A stretch of 25,274 bases of DNA from a virus, in the UHGV virus genome UHGV-0164608, one strand, 5' to 3'. How positions within the stretch are numbered: the stretch's first letter is position 1; each line of letters opens with the position of its first letter. The notes under the pieces are model-generated. The model was not told the DNA's origin and ran no database searches. It saw only the letters and a list, made by a program, of their open reading frames with translations. A program made the translations under genes and the position numbers. This document shows, in pieces, positions 1 through 25,274 of this stretch.

Positions 1-47
1 GAGATTAGCGAGTGTCTCGTGGGCTCGGAGATGTGTATAAGAGACAG
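1..47. other. Illumina Nextera library adapter at contig end (P7 tail GAGAT, 8-nt index TAGCGAGT, read-2 adapter GTCTCGTGGGCTCGG, mosaic end AGATGTGTATAAGAGACAG); not biological sequence
   Basis: Bases 14-47 read GTCTCGTGGGCTCGGAGATGTGTATAAGAGACAG exactly, preceded by an 8-nt index-like block and GAGAT. The tail-fibre reading frame runs straight into it. Confidence 0.9.
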
Positions 48-1140
48 GAACAGGGACACCAACAGGTAATGCAGAGCCTTCTCCCAAACCAAGGTATGCG
101 AGAAGACCAGCAACATCCTTTCCACTCAAATTAGTCAGCGTATTGTCCAGCGGTTGTTTACCTGCCAGTGCATTAAGCATTGTCGTGGCAAAGTTCGGGT
201 CATTCCCCAGCGCCGCCGCCAGTTCGTTCAGTGTATCCAGTGTCGCAGGTGCAGAACCCACCATTGCCGCAATCGCCGATTTCACAAAAGCCGTGGTGGC
301 AATCTGTGTATTGTTGACCGACTGCGCCGCCGTGGGGGCTGTTGGCGTTCCGGTGAGTGCCGGACTCGACAGCGGCGCTTTCAGTGCCAGCGCATTGTTA
401 ATGGTGGTACTGAATTTCGGATCATTGTTAATGGCTACGGCTATTTCTTTCAGCGTGTCCAGCGTGGCTGGCGCACCATTAATAAGAGCCGTCAGTGCCT
501 CCTGAACAAACGCGGTGGTCGCAACCTGCGTGGTGTTATTCCCCGCCGCTGGCGTTGGCGCTTTGGGTGTCCCGGTAAACGTAGGACTTTCTTTCTGTGC
601 ATACTGTGAATGCGGGTCCGGTGCGGCAAGATGTTTTGCCATCTGATCATCCGCGTACACCTTCAGCTCCAGTACCTTATCATCCACATACTTGCGGGTT
701 GCCAGCACTACGGCAGGGTCGATTTTCAGGGTGATATTGTCCGTGCTGCTGGTAATCAACACCATACGCACGGTCTGGGTACGCCCGCTGCCTTCAGCCA
801 GTTGCGGCTTATAGCTTTCCGGGCAGTTGCCCACGGCAATCAATGCCCCGGACTCATCAAACAGGCCCACTTCACGTATCCACCAACCGCCCTCGTTTTC
901 AGGGATCACCTGTTCAGCAATAATCTGGCTGCTGTTCTGCGGGTCGATATAGAGCATATTCAGCGCAGCCCGGCGTTTCTCATTTACCAGTGCTGTCTGC
1001 TTTGCGTCCGGCGTTGGTAATGTTCCGCCGCCATCGCCGACCGCCATATGGGTAATTTTTAAAGGCACACCGAGCGCGGCGGCGCTGGCAAGTTTCGCCG
1101 CGCCAATATCCGTCAGCAGGGTATAAAATTTTGTGCTCAT
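48..1140 (-). CDS. H: Tail fibre protein (P2 gpH-like), N-terminal ~364 codons only; 3' part lost at contig/adapter boundary
   Basis: Manual minus-strand translation from ATG at 1140 gives MSTKFYTLLTDIGAAKLASAAALGVPLKITHMAVGDGGG...YKPQLAEGSGRTQT...ATLDTLNELAAALGNDPNFATTMLNALAGKQPL, matching the P2 gpH N-terminus and collar repeats. The start overlaps the gpI stop (ATGA). It is absent from the ORF track because it has no stop inside the window. Confidence 0.85.
148..585 (-). repeat. Two tandem in-frame ~73-codon repeat units inside the tail-fibre gene (TGTP-x-APT...TTQ[VI]ATTAFV...APATLDTL[KN]E[IL]A...NDP[KN]F[SA]TT...NALA...PL)
   Basis: The motif is seen twice in the H translation. The same duplication shows as repeated peptide strings in the antisense plus-strand ORF 143..505. 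Confidence 0.6.
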
Positions 1141-1742
1141 GGATTCACTCTCATTGTGTCAATAACATGGACCGCCCCGCCTTCATGCGCGGTGCCGCCG
1201 GAAATAATTGTTTCGTTGATATACGGATAGATCGTGATTTCTTCGCCAAGATAGCTGGCGGCTCCCACCCAATGCGGGCCGCTGGTATGCAGATTGATGG
1301 ACATGCCGATCATGTGACGGCTACATGGTTTGGCATCGCTTATCAGTCGCTCAAGTTCCAGATAGGTATCTTCAGTGATGCCCTGGTCCTGCACGCCGAT
1401 ATCCAGGCGAAACGTGCCCGGTGCCTCTCCGGTCTGCCACCACTCAATAATGCGGATCAGAAAGCCGAACGGCTCCACCACCCGCCGCACGGCACTGGTG
1501 GTCCCTTTATGCTGATGAATATAAAAAGCATCCTTCACCACCTGGCGCTTGACGCTTTCTGTCCAGCCCTCGTCCCAGCGATCCACAGAGAACGCCCAGG
1601 CGAGATAAGGCAGGAAACTGACCGGACAGGTTGCCGGATTCCACAAGTCACGCAGCGGCACCTGCAGATCAGAAATCCCGCTGCAGGTTTGCGCCAGTCG
1701 GCGCTCCAGTGGTGTTGAACCCGGTGGCAGCAGACTATTCAT
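1137..1742 (-). CDS. I: Baseplate assembly protein (P2 gpI-like)
   Basis: 201-aa product with LPPGSTPLE...RDLWNPATCP...LPYLAWAFSVDRWDEGW, as in P2 gpI. ATG at 1742 preceded by GGAGGAA. Overlaps J by 8 nt. Confidence 0.9.
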   Translation of the reverse strand: MNSLLPPGSTPLERRLAQTCSGISDLQVPLRDLWNPATCPVSFLPYLAWAFSVDRWDEGWTESVKRQVVKDAFYIHQHKGTTSAVRRVVEPFGFLIRIIEWWQTGEAPGTFRLDIGVQDQGITEDTYLELERLISDAKPCSRHMIGMSINLHTSGPHWVGAASYLGEEITIYPYINETIISGGTAHEGGAVHVIDTMRVNP

Positions 1743-2643
1743 CCGTTCCTCCGTTGGTTACGCTCCACTGCGTACATGATGCCGCCTGTGTTTTGTTCAG
1801 GACCACATCCGCCAGCGGCGAAGCCAGCTCCACACGCTGCACACCCTCAACATGCAGGGCGGCAAAGATGGCGCTACGGCGAATATCCCGGCCAAGACGC
1901 GTCTGACTGGCGATATACTTCTGCAGACTGGCTTTTGCCGCTGCCATTACCGGCTCTGCTTCCGGTCCCGGATAGAGAAAAATGGTGGCTTCCACGCGGT
2001 ACGGGATGATTTCTGCGCTGCGAACCGTCAGACGGTCAGCCACCGGGCGGACGTTCTCACTGTTCAGAGCTTTTTCCACCACGTCCAGCAGGTCTTTTTC
2101 TGCAGTTCCGTCGCCTTCGCGGCTCAGGACAGTCAGCACCACCTCTGCAGGTGCCGGGCTGGTTGCACTGGCATCCGCCACCCGACCGTCGGCGCTTCGG
2201 GCATGAAATTCATAAGCTGCAGTTGGCCCCGCAACAGAAAGCCCTTCAAAGGCTGCAGGCACACGCAGGCGTAACGCTTCATCGCTTTCCATCACAGCTG
2301 CAACGGGCGGCACAGCATCATTATCAGCAGGCGTCACCGTCAGGCGTGTCACGTTGTAGTTGGCAGCGAGCTGGTCCAGATCGCTCCCTATGGCATAAGC
2401 CACCATCACCGCCTGCGCGGCTTCGTTAATGCGCTGGCGCAGAAGCAACTCACGATAAGCATTCTCCTGCAACAATTTGGTGACGGGTTCAGATTCCAGT
2501 TCCAGGGTACGCATCACAGCCTCCTGTTCATCTTTCGGATGAAGCGCCACAAATTCGGCCTTGCGTTCGGCAAGCAGCGTCTCAAAGTCCGGCACATCCA
2601 CAATCTGCGGCGCAGGCAACTGCGAAAGGTCAATCACTGCCAT
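1735..2643 (-). CDS. J: Baseplate assembly protein (P2 gpJ-like), 302 aa from internal ATG
   Basis: MAVIDLSQLPAPQIVDVPDFETLLAERKAEF aligns with the P2 gpJ N-terminus. ATG at 2643 with AGGAG 7 nt upstream. The track's longer ORF (to 2682) starts 13 codons further upstream. Confidence 0.9.
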   Translation of the reverse strand: MAVIDLSQLPAPQIVDVPDFETLLAERKAEFVALHPKDEQEAVMRTLELESEPVTKLLQENAYRELLLRQRINEAAQAVMVAYAIGSDLDQLAANYNVTRLTVTPADNDAVPPVAAVMESDEALRLRVPAAFEGLSVAGPTAAYEFHARSADGRVADASATSPAPAEVVLTVLSREGDGTAEKDLLDVVEKALNSENVRPVADRLTVRSAEIIPYRVEATIFLYPGPEAEPVMAAAKASLQKYIASQTRLGRDIRRSAIFAALHVEGVQRVELASPLADVVLNKTQAASCTQWSVTNGGTDE

Positions 2644-2989
2644 TCTCTGCTCCTGTTGATACGGAAAGGGAAACAGGCACACCGTTATTACGCCGCCCGG
2701 TCAGCTCCACCACCATTGAACCGTCAAAATTGCTGTTAATGGTGATGGAATCCAGCGTCAGCCGTGGCTCCCAGCGACTCAGCGCCACATACACTGCCGA
2801 CATGACCTGCAGGCGTAATGCCGGATTTTGTGACTGGTCTATCAGTGCCGACAGCAGAGAACCATATTCCCGACGGGCAATACGGCTACCCTGCGGTGTC
2901 AGCAGAATGTCCCGCACCGACTGGCGCAGATGGTCAATATCAGTAATGGCTTTGCCGCTGGTATTATTCATCCCGCTATAAAGCGTCAT
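2630..2989 (-). CDS. W: Baseplate wedge protein (P2 gpW / gp25-like)
   Basis: 119-aa product. ATG at 2989 overlaps the V stop (ATGA). Size and position match P2 W. Confidence 0.88.
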   Translation of the reverse strand: MTLYSGMNNTSGKAITDIDHLRQSVRDILLTPQGSRIARREYGSLLSALIDQSQNPALRLQVMSAVYVALSRWEPRLTLDSITINSNFDGSMVVELTGRRNNGVPVSLSVSTGAENGSD

Positions 2990-3564
2990 ACCGGACCTCC
3001 GGTTGTGTCGCCGCCTTTCAGGACGCCAGTATGCTGATGCGCATCAACCACAATCCCGTTAGAACTCATCGCTCCGCCGCCCTGGGTAACGCCACCATTG
3101 ATCACCACTTCGCTGTTAATGCGCGTGCGGTCAGCCTCCAGTACAAACTCACTGGTTTTCATGGTGATGTTGTCGACAGCCTCAATGACCATTGATTTGA
3201 TGCCCCTGACATACCAGCGCCCGGTGGCGGGTTCGTATTCAAACCAGCCACCGTCAGGATGTTCTGTCACGCAGGCGTCCGCCGACGTCGACGGTGGAGC
3301 GAACTGATTCGAATAGACAGCGGGCAACGCAAAGGCGGTTTCAAGATTTCCGCCCAGACTCAGCAGCACCACCTGTTCACCTTCCGTTGGTCGCCACCAT
3401 GTGCGGGCATTCCCGGCACGCAGCGTCAGCCAGCTGATCCAGTTGGTTTCAAGGTCGCCCGTTTTCACCCGACAAAGCCAGTTTTCCCTGTCCACTTCGG
3501 TGACTACCCCTGTGCGGATCAGGTTGGTGATGAGGCGCATGATTTCGGTTAGTTGTGCGTTCAT
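2986..3564 (-). CDS. V: Baseplate spike / assembly protein (P2 gpV-like)
   Basis: 192-aa product MNAQ...IRTG.V.E.D...RCRV.TG...W..WL..RAG..RTWW.P..GEQV, closely parallel to P2 gpV. Confidence 0.9.
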   Translation of the reverse strand: MNAQLTEIMRLITNLIRTGVVTEVDRENWLCRVKTGDLETNWISWLTLRAGNARTWWRPTEGEQVVLLSLGGNLETAFALPAVYSNQFAPPSTSADACVTEHPDGGWFEYEPATGRWYVRGIKSMVIEAVDNITMKTSEFVLEADRTRINSEVVINGGVTQGGGAMSSNGIVVDAHQHTGVLKGGDTTGGPV

Positions 3565-3610
3565 AGGGAAAGGTTGCCATCAGGGGAAGAAAGGCGGCAG
3601 TGCTGCAACT

Positions 3611-3628
3611 TGTATCAGTGCTGATACA
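3611..3628. promoter_or_regulatory. Perfect dyad TGTATCAGTGCTGATACA (TGT-N12-ACA) between S and V; candidate Ogr/B-type late-activator binding site
   Basis: TGT at 3611-3613 and ACA at 3626-3628 with 12-nt spacer, fully palindromic, centred about 55 nt upstream of the V start codon. P2-family late promoters carry TGT-N12-ACA upstream of -35. Confidence 0.5.
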
Positions 3629-3632
3629 AAGA

Positions 3633-4079
3633 TCACCCCGCCAGCCATTGCAGAATCATGTCGCGGGTCATTGCCTCAACATCATCATTTACACCCAGCA
3701 GGCGGCGCTCTGCGTAACGGACCTCCGGTCCTTTGCGACTGACGCGATCACGCAGGCCGTAATGGTGAACACGGGCAATACGCTGCACCTTGCCTTCAAA
3801 CTGTACGCTGGCAGAGTCGGCGCTGGCGGCAGTTTTCAGGTATTTTGTGGTGCGCAGCTTTGCAAACATCTGACGTTTGATGCGCCCCTTCTTGCTGCGT
3901 GCTGTTACCCTGCGCGGTTCATAACTGCTGCCATCTGGATTGCGCTGCATCCTGATATTCTGCTGCTGTGTCCGGCGCAGTTCCTGCGCCAGCTGGCGCA
4001 TCATGCGGCTTCTCGTGGCTGGTTCCAGATTCGCCAGCAAGGCACTCAGCCAGTCGTCCATCTTCTGCAGTTCAGCCAC
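3633..4079 (-). CDS. S: Tail completion protein (P2 gpS-like)
   Basis: 148-aa basic protein in the gpS position. The track start at 4079 is GTG; an in-frame ATG at 4061 is an alternative start. Confidence 0.85.
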   Translation of the reverse strand: MAELQKMDDWLSALLANLEPATRSRMMRQLAQELRRTQQQNIRMQRNPDGSSYEPRRVTARSKKGRIKRQMFAKLRTTKYLKTAASADSASVQFEGKVQRIARVHHYGLRDRVSRKGPEVRYAERRLLGVNDDVEAMTRDMILQWLAG

Positions 4080-4503
4080 GTTTCACCGTCCACATTTCTT
4101 CAGGTTCATCGGGTTCTGCTACAGCTTCAACGCTCGACACACTGCCGTCAGTGCTGACCAGCACACGTTCCGTCAGTTGCAGGTTAAGGCTGATATCACA
4201 GACATCGTTGCGCAAAATATCCACATCAAAGGTGAATAGCTTTTCCCGTAACGCCGGGTTATTGATGGCATCGGGCTGGTTATCCCGAAGCCACAGTAAA
4301 ACCGGGGCCATCAGCAGATTCTGGTCGCCACTGAAATCCTCTATCACCACGTTCAGGGTATAGCGGTACTCCCATGACATGGAGCTGGCCCCCGTGGCAA
4401 CCAGCGAACCGTTATCCACAAACAGATGCAGTTTGTCCGGGTTATTGCGGACATAAGGCACCGCTTTATTGAGGGCGTGGCGCAGGGATTGTGGTTTGTT
4501 CAC
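4072..4503 (-). CDS. R: Tail completion protein (P2 gpR-like), probable GTG start
   Basis: VNKPQSLRHALNKAVPYVRNNPDKLHLFVDNGS resembles the P2 gpR N-terminus. GTG at 4503 has AGGAG 7 nt upstream. The track's TTG start at 4524 is 7 codons further upstream. Confidence 0.85.
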   Translation of the reverse strand: MNKPQSLRHALNKAVPYVRNNPDKLHLFVDNGSLVATGASSMSWEYRYTLNVVIEDFSGDQNLLMAPVLLWLRDNQPDAINNPALREKLFTFDVDILRNDVCDISLNLQLTERVLVSTDGSVSSVEAVAEPDEPEEMWTVKRG

Positions 4504-4756
4504 TGTTTCGCTCCTGACACGCAATAATCATGTCCACTTTGTCTGCACAGACCGCCCAGGCGGCCTCCGTTTCATCCAACAACGCGTTCAGATCACCGTT
4601 AGTGCGCGGCGCTGCCTGCTCCAGCCGACACGGTGTCACTCGCGGACAACCACTGACGATAAGCTGCACCTCCGGTGAGTGCCGAACGTTCCCGCAGCCG
4701 GATAATGTCAGCAGGCAAAGGAGTATCAGCCCAGCGGCGTAAATCCTCGTTCTCAC
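4466..4756 (-). CDS. lysC: Outer-membrane spanin lipoprotein (P2 LysC / Rz1-like), overlapping lysB out of frame
   Basis: 96-aa product with signal peptide and lipobox LTLSGC, proline-rich tail. The 5' part lies inside lysB in another frame, as for Rz1-type genes. Confidence 0.75.
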   Translation of the reverse strand: MRTRIYAAGLILLCLLTLSGCGNVRHSPEVQLIVSGCPRVTPCRLEQAAPRTNGDLNALLDETEAAWAVCADKVDMIIACQERNSEQTTIPAPRPQ

Positions 4757-5027
4757 GTTTCAGTTCCTCGATCCGGTGTTGTCGTTGTCTCAGCAGCGCG
4801 CTGGTCTGTTCTGCTTCGGCATAGAGCCGCGCCTGCTCCCGGTTATTGGTTTCAGTCAGAATGGACAGGCTAATAAGCTGGCTGTTGCTCTTTGCCAGTG
4901 CCTGGCTTTTGCTCTGCAGCTCGTCTGCCTGCGTACTAATGGTCTGGCTGGCATCAGCCAGCCGCCACGTCTGCCAGCCCAGCGCCGCCAGTAATAACGC
5001 CAGCACAACCAGCAGCAACCGGTTCAT
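4599..5027 (-). CDS. lysB: Inner-membrane spanin (P2 LysB / Rz-like)
   Basis: 142-aa product with N-terminal TM helix MNRLLLVVLALLLAALGW followed by a coiled-coil region. ATG at 5027 overlaps the upstream stop. Confidence 0.8.
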   Translation of the reverse strand: MNRLLLVVLALLLAALGWQTWRLADASQTISTQADELQSKSQALAKSNSQLISLSILTETNNREQARLYAEAEQTSALLRQRQHRIEELKRENEDLRRWADTPLPADIIRLRERSALTGGAAYRQWLSASDTVSAGAGSAAH

Positions 5028-5401
5028 GCTGCTACCTGTTGCGCCATCTGATTACGGGTGATCCATAAGGCAATAACGGTCAGCAGATAAAAGACCAGGG
5101 TAATAGCCCACCCCGTCCAGGCGAGACTTACGACAATCAGCAATCGCATCACCCAACTGATAAATACGTTTTCTTTTCGGGTAATTGTCTTCAGCAAAGA
5201 TGCCCTTAACTCCTGCCAAAGCGGGCCATTCTTAATTAACGCAGCCAGTGCTACCGGAATTACCGCCCATGTCAGCAAACAGGCTACCCAAACGCCGGAC
5301 GCTGCCAGTACCGGAAAAATCCCCTGCGGATACACCATTGCTGCGATTAACAGCGCCATCCATAACATCAGAAACAGTCCGCTGATTAATTTCTTTTTCA
5401 T
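5024..5401 (-). CDS. lysA: Lysis-accessory membrane protein (P2 LysA-like position)
   Basis: Several hydrophobic helices, starting at the internal ATG at 5401 (MKKKLISGLFLMLWMALLIAA...). The stretch upstream of this ATG in the track ORF overlaps the endolysin gene. Confidence 0.6.
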   Translation of the reverse strand: MKKKLISGLFLMLWMALLIAAMVYPQGIFPVLAASGVWVACLLTWAVIPVALAALIKNGPLWQELRASLLKTITRKENVFISWVMRLLIVVSLAWTGWAITLVFYLLTVIALWITRNQMAQQVAA

Positions 5402-5402
5402 T

Positions 5403-5915
5403 TCAGTTTGCTCCCTGTAAACACCAGGCCATCTCCCGCGCACGGCGGTTATCCAGCCCCTGATTAAACACACCTTTTACATACACCCAGCGCGGTAACT
5501 GTCGGCACGCATCCGCCCAGCGCCGCTGGTTGAGCAATTTCACCAACGTGGAACTGCAGGCATTGCCCGTTCCCACGTTGAAGGCAAACGACACCACCGC
5601 GTCATACACCTTCTGCGGCGGCTGTTGCTTCACACACCTTTCCAGCACCCGCTCCACACGTAGCACGTTGGAGATCAGCCCTTCTGCTGCCTGTCGTTCC
5701 GTAATGGTTTTGCCGGGAATGACGCCCGACGTATTACCAATGCCGTCGGTCCAGACACCCGCGCTGCACTGATACGGCTGCAGACGACAGCCTTCGTAAT
5801 CGGCAATCAGTTTCAGTCCCTCCACGGAGGTGTGAAGCTGCTGAAAACCCGGCAGCGTGGCAGCAATAGCCAGCACGGTCCCGACAAGGCAGCGTTTAAC
5901 GATTGATGGATTCAT
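5403..5915 (-). CDS. SAR endolysin, T4-lysozyme/P21 R-type (GH24)
   Basis: N-terminal weakly hydrophobic signal-anchor (VGTVLAIAATLPG), then YEGCRLQPYQCSAGVWTDGIGNT and SFAFNVGTGNACSSTL, parallel to the P21 R endolysin. ATG at 5915 with GGGAGGA upstream. Confidence 0.85.
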   Translation of the reverse strand: MNPSIVKRCLVGTVLAIAATLPGFQQLHTSVEGLKLIADYEGCRLQPYQCSAGVWTDGIGNTSGVIPGKTITERQAAEGLISNVLRVERVLERCVKQQPPQKVYDAVVSFAFNVGTGNACSSTLVKLLNQRRWADACRQLPRWVYVKGVFNQGLDNRRAREMAWCLQGAN

Positions 5916-6111
5916 AATCCTCCCGCGAGATCTGCCCGTCGCGCAGAAGCTGGTAGGCTTTGTGTTTGTAGTACCAGTTGATAGCCAGCATCAGCACACC
6001 AATCATCAGGCCGCCCAGCGTTGAGGCATCCTTGATGGACAAATCGCCCAGCCAGGCCAGCACGACGGCGATGCAATACGTGATAAAGGCGCTGATTCGC
6101 TCAAGCGTCAT
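5896..6111 (-). CDS. Holin, two-TMD pinholin-like
   Basis: 71-aa product with two hydrophobic helices and a charged C-terminus, immediately upstream of the SAR endolysin. Confidence 0.65.
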   Translation of the reverse strand: MTLERISAFITYCIAVVLAWLGDLSIKDASTLGGLMIGVLMLAINWYYKHKAYQLLRDGQISREDYESINR

Positions 6112-6114
6112 AAT

Positions 6115-6318
6115 TCAGTCCCATAGCTGGACGGTCTGCACGGTGGTGGTGGTCGGAATGTCCGGCAGCTCCACCTGCAGCCCGTGAGGTAAAAAGGGGC
6201 CGTGTTCGGCAAGCCCCGGATTTGCCTTCAGTACCTGCTCCGTGACACCCTGTGTACGCCCGTAATGACGCCAGCAAAGCGCGTCCACCGTGTCATACTG
6301 ATGCGCACGTACTTTCAT
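6115..6318 (-). CDS. X: Tail protein X (P2 gpX-like)
   Basis: 67-aa product ...YGRTQGVTEQVLKANPGLAEHGPFLPHG.QVELPD, matching P2 gpX in size and sequence. Confidence 0.85.
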   Translation of the reverse strand: MKVRAHQYDTVDALCWRHYGRTQGVTEQVLKANPGLAEHGPFLPHGLQVELPDIPTTTTVQTVQLWD

Positions 6319-6782
6319 CAGATAAGCTCCACAGTGCAGTGCGGCGCATCCTGCACCCGGCTGACGGCCCAGCGGGCGTCACGCCACAAATCACCGCTGG
6401 CTTCTGCCAGTTCTTCGCCTCGCTTCACACCGGATGCCGTGGCGTCATAGTCCTGGTATCGTTCGTTGAGCATGGCGCGTGCCCAGCAGTAAACCGCGTT
6501 GAAATAGTGCTGAATGCGCTCACTTTTCCCGTCCAGCTGTTCTGCCGGAACCTCTGCCAGCGAGGCATACCCCAGCATCTGCTGGCGTCTGCGAAACTCA
6601 TACAGCTCTGCGTTGACCTCCGAAATTGCCGACAGCGCAACCTGCTTTAAACGCGACTGCGTCACCGTGCCGTCAGTGCGCATCACGCTGCGAAACTCCG
6701 ACAGGTCCACATCAGGCCAGAACGGCGTATTTCTGATGATTTCCGCCTGTTCCGGTGCCTGTTCTGGCGCAACAAACTTCAT
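6318..6782 (-). CDS. L: Head completion/stabilisation protein (P2 gpL-like)
   Basis: ...NAELYEFRRRQ...ELWRDARWAV.R.Q..P.C resembles P2 gpL. Internal ATG at 6782 has AGGAGAAA upstream; the track ORF begins at a GTG at 6845. Confidence 0.85.
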   Translation of the reverse strand: MKFVAPEQAPEQAEIIRNTPFWPDVDLSEFRSVMRTDGTVTQSRLKQVALSAISEVNAELYEFRRRQQMLGYASLAEVPAEQLDGKSERIQHYFNAVYCWARAMLNERYQDYDATASGVKRGEELAEASGDLWRDARWAVSRVQDAPHCTVELI

Positions 6783-6877
6783 GCTGCTTTCTCCTGAAAT
6801 AGAGGGCGGTGGACGGGGTTTTGATGTGGCGGTGCCTTTCGCCACCCCGTGCCGCCCGTGCGCGGGGGCACGTTCTG

Positions 6878-7528
6878 TCAGCGGCTGTCATTGCGCAGTC
6901 TGCGCTCCAGCTGCTGTTTGTCTTTTTTCACGCCACAGCGGGGATCGAGCTGTAACGCATGGTTGAGATGATTAAGGGCGGAAGCCGGATTGCTTTCACT
7001 CAGGACAGCGCCAATCGCTTTATGCAGACGCGCCCGTGATTGGTCCGGCATATCCAGACCGTCTGTCAGCTCCAGCGTCTGCAGCAACAGATCGGCATCA
7101 AAGCCGGTGGCGGCAAGCATTGCGCTCTGCGCTGCATCTGCCATTTCCTCTGCCAGCACGGTCTGCACGTTGCGGTTACCCAGCGGCATCACCCAGCCAT
7201 GACGCAGGGCATGACGCCCGATCTCCAGCGCCCCGGCATAATCTCCGGCATCAATGCGCCACAGCATCACGTACATCAGCACGTCATCCTGTTGAGCGCC
7301 TCCGGCAGCCAGGACGCCCTCCGCCCAGGCGGCATATTTCGGCAGCAGCTTCACCTTTATTTCCGCTTTTTTCACCGTGGACTGAACGCCCTTGAGACGG
7401 CGGCGGTCTTCCGCCAGTTGCAGCAGCATCAGGTCATAGCCCGACGCGTGGCGAACACTGCCGCCTTCACGGGCGGCCTGTTCAGCCTGAACGCGCAGGC
7501 GATGCTGCCGTGCGGGACTCAGGCTCAT
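6878..7528 (-). CDS. M: Terminase small/endonuclease subunit (P2 gpM-like)
   Basis: 216-aa product in the gpM position of the O-N-M-L operon, ATG at 7528. Confidence 0.85.
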   Translation of the reverse strand: MSLSPARQHRLRVQAEQAAREGGSVRHASGYDLMLLQLAEDRRRLKGVQSTVKKAEIKVKLLPKYAAWAEGVLAAGGAQQDDVLMYVMLWRIDAGDYAGALEIGRHALRHGWVMPLGNRNVQTVLAEEMADAAQSAMLAATGFDADLLLQTLELTDGLDMPDQSRARLHKAIGAVLSESNPASALNHLNHALQLDPRCGVKKDKQQLERRLRNDSR

Positions 7529-7531
7529 AGG

Positions 7532-8590
7532 TTACGCTCCGGCTTCTGCTGCGGCGGCGCTGAAATCGCCAATCTGGATGTTTTCCACCAGTGCGGCGCA
7601 GCGGTAGTCCTCAACCACATAGGCTTCGTTAACAGATTCAAAGTTTTCAATCCGGTCACGTTTCGGGTTGTCGATAACTGAACGACGGCGGGTGTCTTCC
7701 TGCCAGTAGATGGACAGGTTATCCAGACGGGTGATCAGCAGCGCATTCGGCGGGAAGAACGGCGCACGCACGGCCTGCAGACCGCCCATGCGTTTCTGAC
7801 TGATAATCATATCGGCTGCCAGTTTTTCACTGTTTTCCTGCTCTTTGTTGACCAGCGGGAAATACTTGTCAGACAGCAGTTCACGACCGCAAATCACCAC
7901 CAGATCGTCATCGTCCTGGTAGACCACGTCGATAAGCTCATTAACGGCATCCATCACCACGGCGTCCAGGTTGGCATATTCGCCACCTTTACCGACTTTC
8001 ACCGCACCCGGTGTGGTTTCACCGCCCGTGGTGGTGCTGCCCATGACGTGATCCGGTGCATCCTCACGGATTTTCTGCAGCCAGCCTTTGTTCACATCCT
8101 GCAGCAGCGGGTTTTCGCTGCGGTTGGAGGTTTTCGCACGCTTCACGCCGTTAAAGCCGATCATGATGCGGTCCAGTGCCTGACGTTTCACGATGGCGTC
8201 ACGGATACGCACCTGGAAATCCTGAAACTTCGCCCACAGGTCCAGCTTCGCGTAGGTCAGTACCGTGTCAAAGTTGGTCTGCTCGCATTTGTATTCCACA
8301 TCGACCATCAGCGTAGGATCGACAGGTTCACGCTCTTTCGCGGTGGTGTCAGTGGTTCCGGCAATGGTGCTACCAACACCCAACCCCAGCAGCTGACCGG
8401 ACTGCTCAGTCACTGGCGTGACGTTAATCAGCGTCAGGAAAGCGGCGGACTGCTGGATCTGGTCTTCCAGCGTCTGCTGCACAGACGGCTCTACGGTGAA
8501 CTTGCTGGACAGTTCTTCAACTGCCACACCGTTCAGACGCGCCAGCTGCTGCAGGTAAGCGTTAAAAGCAAAGCGGGTATTCTTCTTCAT
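7532..8590 (-). CDS. N: Major capsid protein (P2 gpN-like)
   Basis: 352-aa product, size and position as P2 gpN. Confidence 0.92.
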   Translation of the reverse strand: MKKNTRFAFNAYLQQLARLNGVAVEELSSKFTVEPSVQQTLEDQIQQSAAFLTLINVTPVTEQSGQLLGLGVGSTIAGTTDTTAKEREPVDPTLMVDVEYKCEQTNFDTVLTYAKLDLWAKFQDFQVRIRDAIVKRQALDRIMIGFNGVKRAKTSNRSENPLLQDVNKGWLQKIREDAPDHVMGSTTTGGETTPGAVKVGKGGEYANLDAVVMDAVNELIDVVYQDDDDLVVICGRELLSDKYFPLVNKEQENSEKLAADMIISQKRMGGLQAVRAPFFPPNALLITRLDNLSIYWQEDTRRRSVIDNPKRDRIENFESVNEAYVVEDYRCAALVENIQIGDFSAAAAEAGA

Positions 8591-8606
8591 CGGGTTTTAT
8601 GCTCCA

Positions 8607-16329: not shown

Positions 16330-18744
16330 TTAATACAGGTTTCGCCACTTATCATCTTCCTGCAAACGCTGGTTCCGATAGAAGATACGCAGGCCTGCTC
16401 CTGACGGAATACTGCCGCCGCGAAGGAGTAAATCGACCTCTTTCTCGCTGCCATCAAATCCTCTGGACTTCAGTTCATAGACGAGCTGCTGTCGCTGATG
16501 GTCTCTAATTCGCTGTTTGTAGTCTTTACGCCGTTTCGGTTTCACCAGGCGTAACCTAGCAGCCAGTTCCCGGCGCTCTTTTTTGCTCATACTGTGCAGG
16601 TAATCGTGCAACTCCTTGTCATCCATGCGGGTAATGTCCGTCCTGGTATCCCCATCAGCTGATTTGTCTTTCCCTTGTTGGTTCAAATTTTCAGCAAGGG
16701 GACAGTTATTGCCACGAGTCCAAGGGGCGCAAGCGCCCTGGTCGGCTGCCGCCTCCTGAACGTCAACGGCCTTACGAACCATTTTCCACTTCACGGCATG
16801 AGTGCAGATCTTGCCCTCTGCAATAGGTGACCAGATGCCATAAATACGAATGCCGTGATCGCCATAGGCGGTCGGCTCTTCGTTGATTTCATAAGCAGTT
16901 CTGATGAGGTGATATTTACGGGGAACCAGTACGCCGCCCTGCTTCATGATGTAGGTGGCAAAACAACCAGCATCAGCAGCAGCCAGGATTGCATCAAGGC
17001 GCGGGTTATCCAGTACCGGCGCACCTGCTTTTTTGTCACCCTGTTGCCTTGCCGCCTGACCAGCCAGCAATCGCAGTTCACGGTAAGCCTGACGCCCCGG
17101 AATGCCAAAGAAGCGGAATTGCTGAACACGATGCAGAGACGCCCAGGCATTCACGTATTCAGCGTTATCACGCAGGGATTTACCCGTTTCCTTGCTGATC
17201 TCGCCAGCCAGACCACGCCCGTCAATGTTCTTACTGATATATTTCGCGATGTAGCTTGTCGGCGTTCCTTTGCGCGGGTTAATCAACTCAGACTTAAAGC
17301 GTGGTCCCGTGTTATTCCCCAGCTCCTCGCGGTCTTCACGAATGGCAAACTTACGCAACAAAGCAGTAATGGCGCGGCGATCTTTTTTGCGCATAAAACA
17401 CAACAGGTGCCAGTGAACTGTACCGTCATGATGCGGCTCAGCCACCCGCACGCCATACCAGCGCAATCCGGCTTTGTGCATCGCCTTACGAAATGCAGCA
17501 AACATGCCAACCAGATAATCACTGCTTTGTCTTACCGTCGCATTTGTCCAGGTCGGGTTGGGCCTGCCGTTATTTAGCGTGGAATGGAAACGTGACGGAC
17601 AGGTGATGGTGTAGAAAACGGCGCAGTCACCGCGCATTTCCGCGATAAGCTCCAGGCCTTTAACACAGGCCATCATCTCATTGCGGCGATGCGCAGGGTT
17701 GCTGCTGCTGGCGTTTACCACATCCTCCATGTCCAGCGTGTCGCCGTCTTCGTTCACCAGTTCATGAGAACGGAAAAACTCCAGCGACTTACGGCGCTGC
17801 TCACGTTTATGCATCACGGCTTCATAGCTGACATAGGGAGATGCTTTTTTGCTGACCAGACAGACAGCACGCAACTGCTCTTCCCGCCATTCGCAACGCA
17901 TCTTCCATAATTTCCGATACCACCAGTCGGCGCACAGCATACGCGCCAGCGAACCCGGAATGAGTTCATAGGGCACAGGTTTGCGGCGGTTTCTTTTCCG
18001 GCGGAGTTGCTCAAACGCAGGCGGTATGACATCCAGTCGCAGGGTTTCTGCTGCCACCTTTTCCCATGTCTTGCGGATTTCTTCCGGCTTAACATCATCG
18101 GAGGCGTACAAATCACCACAAGCGGCATCAAGACACATGCTCATATGCGCAGCGACAAGGGTGGACAGGCGTTTCACCTGATCCTGACTCATTTCAGGCA
18201 GGATCAGCAGACCGTCCAGCCCTTCATGGCTTGCCATAAAACGAAAAGATGCAGATAGCTGGCTGTCGCGTACATGCTCCAGTCGTTCCAGGCATGGCTT
18301 AATCGTCTCACGCAAATAGCGGGAATAAGCCTTTGGCCTGCCCAGGTTGCTGAAGTATTTAATACGTTGCATCAGCGGCTTGCTGATATGGGAAGGCTGG
18401 GCGTTGACATCCGCCAGAATGACCATGTCTGGATTAAAACGCTGCTGCTCATGCGCCAGCTTTGCCCGGCTAATTAGCTTATCCTGCTCCATTTCGCGCT
18501 GGACAGGATCACGGGATTCATTAAAGAAATAACGCTCCCAGACCTGATCACTCAGTGCCTCGCGGCGCAGTTGTTCCTGCTCGTTATCGGCAGCGTACAG
18601 AGTGATCAGGTTTGAAAGCGCAGAAACCGGCGCAACTTCCGCCGGGTCCAGATAAGGGTTAATGGCCTTTTTCGGGCTGTTCCATGAGAATGCTGCGGCA
18701 GCCTCGTTAAAGCCGCAGCAGTTGTTCATATCGGCATGACTCAT
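16330..18744 (-). CDS. A: Replication initiation protein, rolling-circle endonuclease (P2 gpA-like)
   Basis: 804-aa product containing [17 protein letters not shown] and [12 protein letters not shown], hallmark motifs of P2 gpA. Confidence 0.9.
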
Positions 18745-19598
18745 GCACGTACTCCGTACACGGCAGAACTGTCCACGCCACGCGAATAATCAAATCCCAC
18801 CCAGCAGCGCGGCCCGGAAACAGCAATGATTTCTGTTGCTGATTTACCCTCTCCAGCTGCCACACCGATGTTGCGTTTTGCCTTGATGTAGTGGTGAGTA
18901 AAATTGCGATACAGCGAACGGATCAGGGATGTGTCACTGTTAGAAACAATGACCGGATGTCCTTCTGATGACCGATGTTCAAGAACGGATGCCAGGTGAT
19001 ACTGGTCATCTTCAGTGAAGCCGTCAGTGTGATAACCGGAAAACGTGCCGTCATACGGCGGATCGCAATACACCACATCCCCCGCCTTCAACATCGCCAG
19101 CGTTTCATCAAAGCTGGCGCAGATAAACGTTGCCCGCTGGGCTTTTTCTGCAAATGCGCGAATTTCTTTTTCAGGGAAATACGGATTTTTATAATTACCG
19201 TAGGGAATGTTGAAATGCCCGCTCTTGTTATAGCGACATAAACCACGGTAACCGTGACGATTGAGATACAGGAAATATACCGCTTTCATGAAATCAGTAA
19301 TTTCAGTGGAGTAATTAAACTCCTGCCTTATGTTGTAATAAGCCACCTCCCTGTTTGCGATCTCAAATAAAACTCTGGCGCGAGATATAAACGATTCACA
19401 ATCAGCGGCAACCTTTTTATAGAGGTTGATTAAATCAGGATTAATATCCGCAACCAGATAGCTGGGGTAATCCGTCTCCATCATCACAGCACAGGAACCC
19501 GCGAAAGGTTCAACCAGTCGCGGGCCAGCAGGAAGGTGTTTTTTCAGTTCGGACATAATGGCGGTTTTATTTCCCGCCCATTTCAGGATGGTGCTCAT
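18741..19598 (-). CDS. dam: DNA adenine methyltransferase (Dam-like, N6-adenine)
   Basis: [23 protein letters not shown]...[11 protein letters not shown]... and DPPY. ATG at 19598 with GGAGGTG upstream, overlapping the upstream stop (ATGA). Confidence 0.85.
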
Positions 19599-19822
19599 AC
19601 AGCACCTCCGTTGTAATGTTTGCCTTTCAGCTCTGCGATTTCCTGACAGGTAATGCAAAGCTGCACACCTGGAATGGCGCGGCGGCGTGCTGGCGGAATT
19701 GGCGCTTCACACTCAATGCAAAGCACGCGGGACACGCCCGGCGTTTTGGCACGGGCAGCACGAATATGGCGCTGGCGTTCTTCTTCAACGCGCTGCTGTA
19801 CAAGATCCATTGCATCAGCCAT
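19595..19822 (-). CDS. TraR/DksA-family C4 zinc-finger protein
   Basis: 75-aa product with CIEC-x17-CITC. Confidence 0.7.
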   Translation of the reverse strand: MADAMDLVQQRVEEERQRHIRAARAKTPGVSRVLCIECEAPIPPARRRAIPGVQLCITCQEIAELKGKHYNGGAV

Positions 19823-20055
19823 TAGTGGATCTCCTGCGCTTCGTTCTGGATTGCTTCAGCAGTTACACGCAGTAGTTCTGCTGCTTCGACGTGGTTTAGC
19901 TGGCGGGATGTGATATGACACGCCAGGCTATCAAGGCGAGCTGCCATTGCTTCAGCCCTTGCCCGGCGTTCTTCCAGACGAGCCTCTGTCAGTAAAATAT
20001 TAAGACATGCATCATCCGGTCCGGTTTTAGTCGTGAGGGTTTCAATATTACGCAT
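19822..20055 (-). CDS. Hypothetical early protein
   Basis: 77 aa from ATG at 20055 with AGGAGAA upstream; stop overlaps the next start (TAATG). Confidence 0.5.
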   Translation of the reverse strand: MRNIETLTTKTGPDDACLNILLTEARLEERRARAEAMAARLDSLACHITSRQLNHVEAAELLRVTAEAIQNEAQEIH

Positions 20056-20122
20056 AATCAATTCTCCTGAATTTAGATAAAGGGATGCCCGGCGGGTTTA
20101 CGCCATTAATTTCATTAGTTGG

Positions 20123-20464
20123 TTAATTCGGCATGGTTAGCCGTCTGGGAAATAAGCTCACCACTGCACGAAAATGATTCATTGCTTTAATCAACTCCCG
20201 CTTTTCGTCAGTGGTCAGCTCATTAATGCTGATGATATGACGTTCAGCTGGAATTTTTGCCATAAAGAATATGGCAGCCAGTGCTCGTTTATTTTTTTCG
20301 TTATTGATATCCCGTGGATCACGCATATCTTTAATAAACCGCTCAAGCTCTGACTCAATATTCAGGCCAAATACTTTCGCCCTTAACTCCGCAATGTGAT
20401 TAAGTCCATTCAGGCGTTCACCGGGGCTTAATGGAACAGTCGCCGCAGCGCCTTCAATAGCCAT
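20123..20464 (-). CDS. Hypothetical early protein
   Basis: 113-aa product, ATG at 20464 with GGGGGAA upstream. Confidence 0.5.
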   Translation of the reverse strand: MAIEGAAATVPLSPGERLNGLNHIAELRAKVFGLNIESELERFIKDMRDPRDINNEKNKRALAAIFFMAKIPAERHIISINELTTDEKRELIKAMNHFRAVVSLFPRRLTMPN

Positions 20465-20628
20465 TTGTTCCCCCGTTTTTTCGTTGATAGTTCTGCCAGC
20501 AATTCATCTTGTGAACGGCACGGATGCCAGCGTTTACCATCCTTACCCATTATCCAGCCGTGACCGTAGTGCATTGCCGGGCTTTGTTTTACCAGCAGCG
20601 ATGCAAATGATGGTTCTTTCGTCAGCAT
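20428..20628 (-). CDS. Small hypothetical early protein
   Basis: 66 aa from ATG at 20628 with GAGGTG upstream, directly after cII. Confidence 0.4.
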   Translation of the reverse strand: MLTKEPSFASLLVKQSPAMHYGHGWIMGKDGKRWHPCRSQDELLAELSTKKRGNKWLLKALRRLFH

Positions 20629-20635
20629 AAGCACC

Positions 20636-21145
20636 TCACAGCAAACCGAATGAAGCACCGAGGCCAGTCATGGTATCAACTGCACTCGCCATCGCAGGGT
20701 TAGCCTGTAAACGGGCCTGTAATGAAACAGCAGCCAGCGCCATCAGTCGTGTTACAGAGTTAATGCTGCTGATAGCATCACGACGACCTGCACTGGTTTT
20801 TACATCGCCAGATACCGCACCTGCAGCAACACGCCCGATCTCTGCGGTTGCACTCATGACGTAATGCGGCAGTTTCTCTTTTGCTACCTCATTAATAGGT
20901 ACACATGGCAGGCAGTGAATCTGTGCCAGAAAACCATCTATCAGCGTTGAATCTTCAGTCAGATCGGTAAGCAGCCAGATTTCTGGCGCATTGAGCTGAT
21001 GCGGTTGATCTGGGTTGAGTTTGTTTCGCAGAGTCTGGACATTCATTCCTGCACGTTCTGCCAGCTTCGCCATATTGTGACGAAGTGCAAAAGCTCTACA
21101 GGCTTCATCAAAATGTGGATGTTTGGAAACTTGGTAATCAAACAT
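20636..21145 (-). CDS. cII: CII-like transcriptional activator (phage 186 CII type)
   Basis: [45 protein letters not shown]... is near-identical in pattern to 186 CII. 169 aa from ATG at 21145. Confidence 0.85.
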
Positions 21146-21177
21146 GGTCGACACCCCTGATGTATCCCAAAATGGAA

Positions 21178-21399
21178 CTAGTTGAATACAACATTGCAAT
21201 CAGTAAGTGCATCAACGGTAAGAGCAGCAAGGTTGATCATCACCTTTTCTCTTTTCTTGTCTTTCCGAAGGCGATGCCGAGGGATGCGACCGTCAGCCAG
21301 CATATCGTTAATTGTGTCGATTGAAAGACCAGTAAGTTCGCTATAACGCTCAATTGTGACATGTGGCGTATTCAGAGTTATTGAAATGTTAGGGGTCAT
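21178..21399 (-). CDS. apl: Apl/Cox-type excisionase and lytic regulator
   Basis: 73-aa product, first gene of the rightward early operon, divergent from cI. Confidence 0.75.
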
Positions 21400-21494
21400 G
21401 ATGCAACATCTCCTATTGGCTTGTGGTGAGCCTGTAGTAATCGTGGCAAGTACCCAAATGGGGACAAAACTGATACTAGGATCGCAAAAGAGAT
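21400..21494. promoter_or_regulatory. Lysis-lysogeny switch region with divergent promoters between apl and cI
   Basis: 95-bp intergenic region between divergent regulators; individual operators not resolved. Confidence 0.5.
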
Positions 21495-22091
21495 ATGTCA
21501 ACATCAAAGTACCCAAGTGAGATCAAAATAAATCCCAATAAAGGTGGTAAGGCTGCGATTGAGCGATTAGTCGAAGCTTATGGCTTTACGACACGACAGG
21601 CTTTAGCTGATCACTTGGAAGTATCAAAAAGCACTCTGGCGAACAGGTATTTGCGGGATACGTTTCCTGCAGACTGGATAATCCAATGTGCTCTTGAAAC
21701 AGGAACCTCACTGAAATGGTTAACCACCGGGCAAGGACTTAAGCAAAGCTCGCTGACAGTAGCCACAGAAGAGCTTCCCAAGTTTCGCCTTACCGCAGGC
21801 AAAATGATTGAAGATGGTTCATATGTATTCGATTCATCATTTCTTCCTGCAAATCTTTCATCACCAATTGTTATTCAGGATGGGCTTGTCACATACATTT
21901 GTGATCAAAAATTTTCTGAAGTACTTGATGGACACTGGTTAATCAACATCGACGGAACCTATTCCATTCGAAAAATCACAAAGCTTCCAAAAGGTATGAT
22001 TAAAATTACAACTACAGAGAATAGCTTTGAATGTGCATTTTCTGATATTGAAGTGGTTGCTTGTATAAGAAGTACAATAGTTTCAAATTGA
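21495..22091 (+). CDS. cI: CI immunity repressor (phage 186 CI type)
   Basis: ...ERLVEAYGFTTRQALADHLEVSKSTLANRYLRD...CALETGTSLKWLTTGQG... parallels 186 CI. 198 aa. Confidence 0.85.
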   Translation: MSTSKYPSEIKINPNKGGKAAIERLVEAYGFTTRQALADHLEVSKSTLANRYLRDTFPADWIIQCALETGTSLKWLTTGQGLKQSSLTVATEELPKFRLTAGKMIEDGSYVFDSSFLPANLSSPIVIQDGLVTYICDQKFSEVLDGHWLINIDGTYSIRKITKLPKGMIKITTTENSFECAFSDIEVVACIRSTIVSN

Positions 22092-22111
22092 TATAGTAAA
22101 AGGATTTAAAA

Positions 22112-23788
22112 ATGAATTCATTTTCCATCGTTATATTCTTATTAGCATTTCTCGCCCCTGTTCTAGCTATAATATTATTTAAGCAAAGTAAAGAACACAA
22201 AGCCGCCATAGATAACCTGACGGCTAACAACATAGCCCTTTCCAGCCAACTGAGTGAAAATCAAGAAAAGTTAGCACAGACTGCACGAGATCTATCAGAG
22301 CTTGAAGGGCGAGCAGCACCATTATGGCAATACGAAGAATTGCACAGCGCAGTGATGGAGGCAGAGAATAAGATAAAAAATGCAGACTCAATAGCTAGGC
22401 AAAAAATAGAAGAAGCCCAAATAAAGGCAGCTAAGACAGTAAACGAAGCAAGTTATCAAGCTCAGATAACAATAAGCAACGCTAATAGCGAAGCTATAGC
22501 AATCACCAAAGACGCTCGCGATGCACGCCTGAAAGCCAAAGAACGTCTTGATAATGCCAACAGTAAAGCAAATGAGCTGATCTCAAATGCTAATGACAAC
22601 GCAGTAAAAATTATTTCCGATGCAGAAGAAAGAGCAAAAGAGATTGCTGGTTCAGCATATGAAGCTAAAGAGTTTGCAGAAAAATATGAAGCAGTTGCCA
22701 AATCAATGAAAAATAAAATTGAAGGTTATGGCGATGAATGGATCATCCCTAACCGTAGTGTACTTGATGAATTGGCAGAAAATTATGAGTTTACAGATGC
22801 AGGCAAGGAATTACAAAAAGCCAGGGAGTTAACAAAATCATTAATAAAAACTAATAAAGCAGCTTCGTGTGATTATGTTGAGCAAAACAGGCGTAATACT
22901 GCTATCAACTTTGTTTTGGATGCCTTCAATGGAAGAGTTGACAGTATTTTATCGAAAGTCAAACACAACAATTTTGGAAAACTTTCCCAAGAAATAAAAG
23001 ATGCATTTCAACTTGTAAATTATAATGGATCTGCTTTTAGATCCGCAAAAATAAGTGACATCTATCTTCAGGCACGACTCAACGAGCTAAAATGGGGAGT
23101 TGCAGTTAATGAAATTATGCTCGAAGAAAAAGAGGAGCAAAGAAGGATTAAAGAACAGCTTCGTGAAGAGGAAAGAGCTCGTAGAGAGTATGAAAAAGCG
23201 ATAAAAGAAGCCGAAAAAGAAGAGAAAGCTATTCAGCAAGCTATAAATAAAGCGACGAAAGAGCTTATGCTTGCAAATGAAGAACAACGCTTAGCTTTAG
23301 AGCAAAAAATAGCTGAACTACAGTTAAAATATGAAGAAGCTGAAGCTAAAAACCAACGAGCTATTTCTATGGCTCAACAAACTAGATCAGGCCATGTTTA
23401 TATAATTAGCAATATTGGCTCATTTGGCGAAGATGTATATAAAATTGGAATGACACGCCGCCTTGAACCACTTGATCGTGTTCGTGAACTTGGGGATGCT
23501 AGTGTTCCTTTTTCGTTCGATGTTCATGCGATGATTTATAGTGATGATGCACCGTCATTAGAAAATCATCTGCATAAAGTCTTCAACGAAAAGCAGGTCA
23601 ATAAAATTAACTCACGAAAAGAGTTTTTTAACGTAAATATTAAAGAAATTAAATCGGTTATTGAAGATATGAACATCAATGCCCACTGGACAATGTTTGC
23701 AGAGGCGAAAGAATATAGAGAGTCACTAGCTATTGAACAGGAACGCAAAGCAGCCACTTCCGCCAACGATGAACTACATGTTGCTTAG
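22112..23788 (+). CDS. Membrane-anchored coiled-coil protein with C-terminal T5orf172/GIY-YIG-like domain (DUF4041-like architecture); candidate defence/abortive-infection moron
   Basis: N-terminal TM helix MNSFSIVIFLLAFLAPVLAIILF, ~400 aa of A/E/K-rich coiled coil, then GHVYIISNIGSFGEDVYKIGMTRRLEPLDRVRELGDASVPFSFDVHAMIY...LENHLHKVF. AT-rich, 20 nt downstream of cI. Confidence 0.7.
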   Translation: MNSFSIVIFLLAFLAPVLAIILFKQSKEHKAAIDNLTANNIALSSQLSENQEKLAQTARDLSELEGRAAPLWQYEELHSAVMEAENKIKNADSIARQKIEEAQIKAAKTVNEASYQAQITISNANSEAIAITKDARDARLKAKERLDNANSKANELISNANDNAVKIISDAEERAKEIAGSAYEAKEFAEKYEAVAKSMKNKIEGYGDEWIIPNRSVLDELAENYEFTDAGKELQKARELTKSLIKTNKAASCDYVEQNRRNTAINFVLDAFNGRVDSILSKVKHNNFGKLSQEIKDAFQLVNYNGSAFRSAKISDIYLQARLNELKWGVAVNEIMLEEKEEQRRIKEQLREEERARREYEKAIKEAEKEEKAIQQAINKATKELMLANEEQRLALEQKIAELQLKYEEAEAKNQRAISMAQQTRSGHVYIISNIGSFGEDVYKIGMTRRLEPLDRVRELGDASVPFSFDVHAMIYSDDAPSLENHLHKVFNEKQVNKINSRKEFFNVNIKEIKSVIEDMNINAHWTMFAEAKEYRESLAIEQERKAATSANDELHVA

Positions 23789-23846
23789 CAATGTATGTTT
23801 CATAGCAATCACACATTGATTACTGGTTGTATATACAGTTAAATTT

Positions 23847-23872
23847 AGCCCTCTGATATGAGGGCTTTTTTA
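23847..23872 (+). terminator. Rho-independent terminator abutting the int start codon
   Basis: AGCCCTC-tgatat-GAGGGC followed by TTTTTT, then ATG of int. Confidence 0.6.
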
Positions 23873-24924
23873 TGGCAGTACGAAAACTCACCACAGGAAA
23901 ATGGCTTTGCGAATGTTACCCCGCCGGACGTAGTGGACGTCGTGTGCGTAAACAATTCGCCACCAAAGGCGAAGCACTGGCTTTTGAGCGTCACACGATG
24001 GAAGAAACCGAAGCAAAGCCCTGGCTAGGTGAATCAGTGGATCGTCGAACACTGAAAGACGTGGTTGAGCTATGGTTCAAACTACATGGTAAATCACTGA
24101 CAGCTGGGCAGCATGTCTATGACAAATTGCTGCTGATGGTTGACGCTCTGGGCAATCCCCTTGCAACTGATCTAACCTCTAAAATGTTTGCCCACTATCG
24201 AGATAAACGCCTGACAGGAGAGATCTACTTCAGCGAGAAATGGAAGAAAGGAGCAAGCCCGGTCACCATTAACCTGGAGCAAAGCTATCTAAGTAGTGTT
24301 TTTAGCGAACTATCCCGCCTGGGCGAATGGTCGTATCCGAACCCACTGGAGAACATGCGAAAATTCACCATCGCAGAAAAAGAGATGGCATGGCTTACCC
24401 ATGAGCAGATTGTTGAATTACTGGCTGATTGCAAACGTCAGGACCCAATTCTGGCACTGGTAGTTAAGATATGCTTAAGCACAGGCGCACGCTGGCGAGA
24501 AGCCGTAAATCTTACTCGTTCACAGGTGACCAAATACCGAATTACCTTTGTAAGAACGAAGGGGAAGAAAAACAGAAGCATCCCTATCAGTAAAGAGCTT
24601 TACGAAGAGATCATGGCGCTTGATGGGTTCAATTTCTTCACAGACTGCTATTTTCAATTTTTATCCGTGATGGAAAAAACGTCTATCGTGCTCCCTCGCG
24701 GTCAACTCACACACGTTCTGCGCCATACGTTTGCGGCGCACTTCATGATGTCGGGTGGAAACATTCTGGCCTTACAAAAAATTCTCGGACACCACGATAT
24801 AAAAATGACTATGCGTTACGCACATCTGGCACCGGATCATCTGGAAACGGCGCTCCGTTTCAATCCTCTGGCAACGCTGCCAAGTGGCGACAAAGTGGCG
24901 GCAGCGGTTGGCATTACCCCGTAA
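23872..24924 (+). CDS. int: Tyrosine integrase (P2/186 family)
   Basis: 350-aa product with ...GARWREA..., LTHVLRHTFAAHF, LGHHDIKMTMRYAHL (R, H-x-x-R, Y catalytic residues). Confidence 0.9.
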   Translation: MAVRKLTTGKWLCECYPAGRSGRRVRKQFATKGEALAFERHTMEETEAKPWLGESVDRRTLKDVVELWFKLHGKSLTAGQHVYDKLLLMVDALGNPLATDLTSKMFAHYRDKRLTGEIYFSEKWKKGASPVTINLEQSYLSSVFSELSRLGEWSYPNPLENMRKFTIAEKEMAWLTHEQIVELLADCKRQDPILALVVKICLSTGARWREAVNLTRSQVTKYRITFVRTKGKKNRSIPISKELYEEIMALDGFNFFTDCYFQFLSVMEKTSIVLPRGQLTHVLRHTFAAHFMMSGGNILALQKILGHHDIKMTMRYAHLAPDHLETALRFNPLATLPSGDKVAAAVGITP

Positions 24925-24947
24925 TAACCACCACTGACCACCAACCC

Positions 24948-24979
24948 AACTTATTGTTTTTACTATAACTTATTGTTTT
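24948..24979. repeat. Two direct 13-bp repeats (aacttattgtttt) 19 bp apart downstream of int; candidate Int arm-type sites
   Basis: Exact direct repeat read from the sequence, in the position expected for the attachment site. Confidence 0.4.
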
Positions 24980-24983
24980 CATT

Positions 24984-25009
24984 AACCCGTTTACATAAAT
25001 GGGTTTTTT
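24984..25009 (+). terminator. Hairpin plus T-run after int; possible terminator
   Basis: aacccgttta-cat-aaatgggtt with one G-T wobble, followed by TTTTTT. Confidence 0.35.
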
Positions 25010-25274
25010 GTTGCCTGGAATTTATGTCTTTCTTAATCAATTGATTAAAATCATACTTTTACACACATGGCGACAGGGGTTTTACCATTTCGGTGTCAGT
25101 CTTTGTTTTATGCCGTTTCAATCGCGTACAATAAATCAACCAAAGCAACCGCGCCGACATCATCCCAGCGTAAATAACTCGCTAAAGAACTTGTTCCTGA
25201 ATCCTTCCCTAAAACTTTCGTAAGCGTACAGCGAGAACCGTATTGACGGGGATGTGTTATTCAGTTGGCAGTGT

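Follow-up and report, generated by a model that had tools for sequence, protein, structure and literature searches.

The first 47 bases of the window (the whole 25,274-nt stretch of DNA analysed here, UHGV virus genome UHGV-0164608) are almost certainly an untrimmed Nextera i7 adapter that has left the adjoining tail-fibre gene H artificially truncated, a joint claim that we hold with near certainty. Adapter remnants at contig ends are a familiar assembly artefact with nothing novel about them, and there is nothing biological in the 47 bases themselves. The phage sequence next to them belongs to a Gin-type invertible tail-fibre cassette, which we favour, if only somewhat, as the cause of the contig break. 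The adapter is composed of three parts:

1..5, + strand: GAGAT, the last five bases of the P7 flow-cell primer tail (Illumina, synthetic), evident from the match of bases 1-47 to the i7 index primer.
6..13, + strand: the i7 index TAGCGAGT, i.e. Nextera N716, read as ACTCGCTA (synthetic), according to the table in PMC7589761.
14..47, + strand: the Nextera read-2 transposase adapter (synthetic), composed of GTCTCGTGGGCTCGG and the 19-nt Tn5 mosaic end AGATGTGTATAAGAGACAG, by exact match.

The window thus starts with the layout GAGAT-TAGCGAGT-GTCTCGTGGGCTCGG-AGATGTGTATAAGAGACAG, and taken together these are identical to the last 47 bases of the complete i7 index primer (CAAGCAGAAGACGGCATACGAGAT + TAGCGAGT + GTCTCGTGGGCTCGG + AGATGTGTATAAGAGACAG); the chance expectation of such a 47-mer match in a sequence of this size is 2.5e-24. 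The sequence-only reading, made before any comparison with relatives, had described these bases as library adapter consisting of a Nextera sequence and an index, and had staked this on an exact comparison of bases 14-47 with the Nextera read-2 adapter. We confirmed both parts: bases 14-47 (GTCTCGTGGGCTCGGAGATGTGTATAAGAGACAG) showed 0 mismatches to the 34-nt adapter, and appendix B of PMC7589761 lists TAGCGAGT, in its read form ACTCGCTA, under N716 and also gives the oligo layout. The 34-nt adapter was found as a single copy on either strand of the window, while 0 of 100 dinucleotide-preserving shuffles contained one. Similarly, the 19-nt mosaic end occurred only once over the two strands, even with 3 mismatches permitted, and neither a TruSeq adapter nor a second copy of the Nextera adapter was present within the window. 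Compared to known contamination with Nextera or Nextera XT i7 (N716) adapters, the window is alike over all 47 bases and displays no difference; it holds just 5 nt of the P7 part, its orientation fits read-through of a short insert, and a contig terminus is the usual location of such a remnant.

The homology of related phages begins where the adapter ends. In a megablast search against 5,426 complete E. coli genomes, matches started at query base 46/47 or 78 and none earlier, near-identical Klebsiella records matched from base 47 on, and in a multiple alignment with three relatives the window was wholly divergent upstream of base 48. Base 47 (G) is compatible with both adapter and genome, so that the junction is ambiguous by one base. 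A permissive blastn search produced weak alignments of ~89% that extend back to base 25 or 32; these extensions were rejected as homology and attributed to chance, as the multiple alignment shows scattered matching bases there. With the homology of relatives starting at 46-48, the earlier claim that the start of the window is a contig end and not a biological boundary is supported. The true continuation in CP091829.1 is ...CCTGTTCC|GTGGCCTTTAGCAACTCC, while the window at the same position has ...CCTGTTCC|TGTCTCTTATACAC. Read-through reads would be expected as ...CCTGTTCC|CTGTCTCTTATACACATCTCCGAGCCCACGAGACACTCGCTAATCTCG..., a contig continuing H would be expected to begin at or near GTGGCCTTTAGCAACTCCGCCAACAGGCTGG, and the adapter string used in trimming is CTGTCTCTTATACACATCT.

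The phage part of the window, the truncated gene and the genes upstream of it are as follows:

47..25026, no strand: genuine phage part, from H to int and att, of a P2/186-like Klebsiella prophage (alignment to OM835953.1).
48..1140, - strand: H, homologue of P2 gpH, codons 1-364 of 517, Collar receptor-binding domain absent (Pfam, identity to P2 gpH, H of CP091829.1).
1137..3564, - strand: baseplate genes I, J, W and V, upstream of H (Pfam Tail_P2_I, Baseplate_J, GPW_gp25 and Phage_base_V).

We identified the cut gene as H because of its Phage_tail_fib domain, its homology to P2 gpH and the V-W-J-I-H synteny. The Pfam domain Phage_tail_fib (PF12571) was found at the N-terminus (residues 1-150, E=2.6e-65), and the product is 53.4% identical to P2 gpH over residues 1-332 (E=4e-70). 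The open reading frame begins with an ATG at 1140 and stays open to base 49, which gives exactly 364 whole codons; the figure of about 364 codons proposed from the letters of the window was therefore exact and its coordinates right. The encoded 364 residues match the N-terminal part of the 517-aa H in CP091829.1 (locus L005) without a single difference. In relatives, H has 517 aa and combines Phage_tail_fib with a Collar domain, whereas the window copy, cut at codon 364 of 517, is an incomplete H without the C-terminal receptor-binding part: 153 residues are lost, among them the Collar domain. The reading frame continues into the adapter as ...PV|SYTHLRAHETLANL and reaches base 1 exactly, for a total of 380 codons with a 16-residue adapter-derived C-terminus. 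This 380-aa read-through product was absent from a collection of 15 billion proteins by exact look-up. The truncation of H stems from the assembly and not from biology. A gene caller would output H with the spurious tail ...SYTHLRAHETLANL, and the 47 bases need masking.

Overall, the phage sequence proved to be nearly identical to that of known Klebsiella prophages. Positions 47-25026 aligned to positions 5281-30260 of Klebsiella phage KP12 clone KP12_3 (OM835953.1, locus L010), whose 34,795-nt, circularly permuted genome is that of a P2/186-like temperate phage hosted by K. pneumoniae, with 99.984% identity (24,980 nt, 4 mismatches, 0 gaps). The left 11.7 kb (47-11742) share 99.98-99.99% identity with one 33-kb draft contig and with the prophages of three large chromosomal records. 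The alignments of the window with KP12 and with K. pneumoniae chromosomal prophages (CP091829.1, UWVL01000001.1) have no gaps, and gene order is shared. In contrast to KP12, the window carries 248 nt of non-phage right flank, which includes the end of an IS66-family element: phage identity ends at 25026, the att site, positions 25027-25202 remained without a match when complete E. coli genomes were searched by megablast, and the last ~70 nt (25203-25273) match an IS66-family (ISEc22-like) terminus with 88% identity. The right contig end is an ordinary repeat break. As in P2, the window encodes gpH and the Pfam families of I, J, W and V, while its immunity region has a CI repressor of the phage 186 type (Pfam). 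In P2, H is directly followed by G, and to our knowledge P2 has no invertase; in the Klebsiella prophage, by comparison, H has a constant part followed by a variable part that can invert.

The window covers 71.8% of the 34.8-kb prophage, and 9,815 nt are absent relative to KP12. The absent part comprises the end of H, tfa, an oppositely oriented tfa' with an alternative C-terminus of H, the invertase, sheath, tube, E/E', tape measure, U, D and ogr. In CP091829.1, locus L006 and KP12, the order past H is tfa, tfa', Sv', invertase, sheath, tube, E, T, U, D and ogr. Because near-identical prophages have tail genes past the cut, the absence of these genes from the window is uninformative about the phage. 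The sequence-only reading had warned that the tail-fibre assembly, sheath and tube genes expected beyond the cut were not assessable and that a claim of a prophage lacking tail genes would be wrong. Both warnings were justified, as essentially identical prophages carry these genes. Its list of the genes beyond H calls for one refinement: the cut is followed not just by G, FI and FII but by a Gin-type invertible host-range cassette of ~1.9 kb together with its invertase. The wording 'not assessable' suits this strain, given that one 99.99%-identical prophage (CP052189.1) has indeed been rearranged at this point by an IS. Any judgement on tail-gene loss, prophage completeness or tail-fibre type from the window would be wrong: the contig represents 72% of a Klebsiella P2/186-like prophage that is common and otherwise looks intact.

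The cassette is represented in the window by the following elements:

78..104, no strand: Gin/Cin/Hin-type crossover site CTTCTCCCAAACC-AA-GGTATGCGAGAA, corresponding to H codons 346-355; a 27-nt inverted repeat in relatives.
48..77, - strand: 10 codons at the start of the variable part of H, which has the 'Collar' orientation, the sole retained piece of the cassette; identical to CP091829.1, L006 and KP12.
Junction sequences: ...GGAGAAGGCTCTGCATTACC... between the constant part and Sv; ...GGAGAAGCGGCGAAAAGGGATG... between the constant part and Sv'.

The site at 78-104 marks the boundary between the constant and the variable part within H. It is present as a single copy, with no second crossover site within the window. 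In loci L001, L004, L005 and L006 the 27-nt site pairs with a partner that adjoins the invertase, and the same paired-site arrangement was seen in E. coli relatives. The two crossover sites in L005 and L006 are 27-nt inverted repeats located 1,851 nt apart and 81% complementary (11639-11665 and 13517-13543 in CP091829.1). In near-identical prophages, the cassette of ~1.9 kb consists of the variable end of H, tfa, tfa' and an alternative gp53-like C-terminus, and H can end in either a Collar-type or a gp53-like C-terminus depending on the orientation. A 188-aa serine recombinase with a full-length match to Mu Gin (3UJ3, E=3e-93) adjoins the cassette; this invertase, whose gene lies outside the window, has Resolvase and HTH_7 domains in L005, L006 and KP12. 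We take the crossover site to resemble the hix/gix consensus, a view that fits the structural evidence in relatives; no published hix/gix site sequences turned up in a literature search.

Inversion at the crossover site of the window occurs in nature. Bases 48-77 differ from locus L002 and from CP052189.1 (locus L007), which have another or a flipped segment at this position. In CP052189.1, whose constant part is 99.99% identical, the site is followed by CGGCGAAAAGGGATG... (11639-11790), which in CP091829.1 is found, reverse-complemented, at the far end of the segment; because the site is joined exactly to the reverse-complemented far end, the cassette is flipped in this genome. Both orientations were seen between genomes (Sv in L005 and L006, Sv' in L007), not within this sample. 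In clonal cultures with P2-like prophages, both orientations of the tail-fibre segment have been found to coexist (PMC4272514). The arrangement in L005 and L006 is like that of the G segment of Mu, the C segment of P1 and the P segment of e14 (Gin, Cin and Pin, respectively), with a constant N-terminal part of the tail fibre, two opposed sets of variable C-terminus and assembly genes, an adjacent invertase, and inverted crossover sites of ~27 nt with an AA/TT core. However, compared to the Mu and P1 switches, the host phage is P2/186-like, and the window has one site and 30 nt of cassette, while the invertase and the second site lie outside, as would a Fis-dependent recombinational enhancer.

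The contig stops 30 nt (10 codons) into this cassette. A draft contig (L008; GCA_054571215.1, JBTPTU010000021.1) ends at its position 11650, equivalent to window position 93, beside the AA/TT core, and assemblies therefore break at this crossover site recurrently. Since the cut falls 30 nt inside the cassette and orientations are normally mixed, we attribute the break to inversion, which we consider a somewhat better than even proposition; that the contig end marks active, ongoing Gin-type inversion in the sequenced K. pneumoniae culture is an evenly balanced one. As to the mechanism, we infer that Tn5 would have cut the DNA at 47/48, leaving a fragment shorter than the read length, and that read 1 would have passed the end of the insert and continued into ME', the i7 index and P7. 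If such reads were left untrimmed before assembly, the assembler may have used them to lengthen the contig at a dead end or branch of the graph. Mixed orientations of the cassette would halve the k-mer support spanning the junction and branch the graph at 78-104. A query of bases 1-140 was placed at a median of 2 positions per E. coli genome. A branch caused by inversion is expected at 77/78, where the orientations diverge, while the observed end is at 48, and the overshoot of 30 nt would need an extra assumption, e.g., that one orientation was thinly covered and the adapter tip out-competed the true path.

An alternative explanation is that the adapter is real but that the stop at 48 is trivial, caused, for example, by a local coverage gap or by Tn5 insertion bias in a low-coverage Nextera library, and that its proximity to the crossover site is coincidental. 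A coverage gap near the site would look the same, the end lies 30 nt beyond the expected branch at 77/78, the inverted repeat (27 nt, 81% complementary) is too short to mislead an assembly at the usual k-mer sizes, and at its opposite end the contig stops for an ordinary reason, a repeat break where an IS66-family element terminates. We nevertheless consider a trivial stop less likely than inversion, if a serious rival to it, because an independent draft contig also terminates within the same 27-nt site, prophages that are 99.99% identical differ by inversion at this site, and mixed orientations are the norm in cultures (PMC4272514). It is also conceivable that the prophage was truly rearranged or truncated nearby, its tail genes displaced or lost, and that the adapter sits on a novel junction that was left unassembled. 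Such an IS-mediated rearrangement has a precedent in CP052189.1, and the right end of the window abuts an IS66-family element; however, bases 48-77 keep the intact Sv orientation and are identical to L005, L006 and KP12, no IS end precedes the adapter, and 22 of the 26 contigs read with an identical gpI grouped with the intact layouts of L005 and L006, all of which makes a real rearrangement quite improbable.

The 47 bases could in principle also be biological, as the end of a Tn5-derived transposon or as a mini-Tn5 or EZ-Tn5 construct engineered into H, given that the mosaic end is itself Tn5-derived and that its ...AGACAG-3' is in the target-joined orientation of a real Tn5 insertion. However, the mosaic end shows 0 mismatches to the synthetic ME compared to 3 mismatches to the outside end and 4 to the inside end of natural Tn5, it is preceded by the Illumina-specific GTCTCGTGGGCTCGG, the catalogue index N716 and the P7 tail, and the sequence stops after 5 nt of P7. 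We know of no transposon that carries GTCTCGTGGGCTCGG, an 8-nt catalogue index and a P7 tail. A natural or engineered transposon was excluded on the grounds of the synthetic ME and the Illumina-specific bases upstream of it, and we regard its probability as negligible. As the source contig was absent from all collections scanned, the start of the window could conceivably be an internal chimeric join rather than the true start of a contig: the adapter-genome junction was not found in viral or metagenome contig collections, and neither the host flank nor the H/crossover-site sequence had a source match in the genome contig collection.

If the break was indeed caused by ongoing inversion, adapter-tipped or truncated H genes in draft assemblies would provide a cheap bulk signal of prophages that are switching tail fibres. 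A truncated P2-like H in drafts should not be taken as decay, considering the recurrent failure of assemblies at the crossover site.

Several additional observations were made on the relatives and on other regions of the window. In OM835953.1, H is annotated as two CDS (4822-6374; 422 aa and 80 aa), whereas a single 517-aa gene is present in the chromosomal copies. The entry is filed under Vequintavirinae although its gene content is P2/186-like, and it appears to be an induced prophage that was co-assembled and given the wrong label. CP052189.1 carries an IS with a 234-aa transposase at 11790-12610, ~120 nt into the flipped cassette, which is probably IS26. This IS is joined to the region near gene A, equivalent to window position 16126 onwards, in inverted order, so that one complete genome contains this prophage in a form truly rearranged by an IS. 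Within the window, three co-oriented ORFs (217, 142 and 377 aa; 12422-14643, - strand) adjoin the portal gene, at a position of variable cargo in P2-like phages. They had no Pfam or PADLOC match and matched PHROGs of unknown function (9664, 11490 and 12777), as did their 225-aa neighbour (14952-15629, - strand; phrog_1353); these portal-side ORFs could be an uncharacterised accessory or defence module. Finally, a 558-aa protein with DUF4041/SNIPE and T5orf172 domains is encoded between the 186-type cI and the integrase gene (22112-23788, + strand), and PADLOC matched it strongly to PD-Lambda-1, an anti-phage system (E=7e-120).
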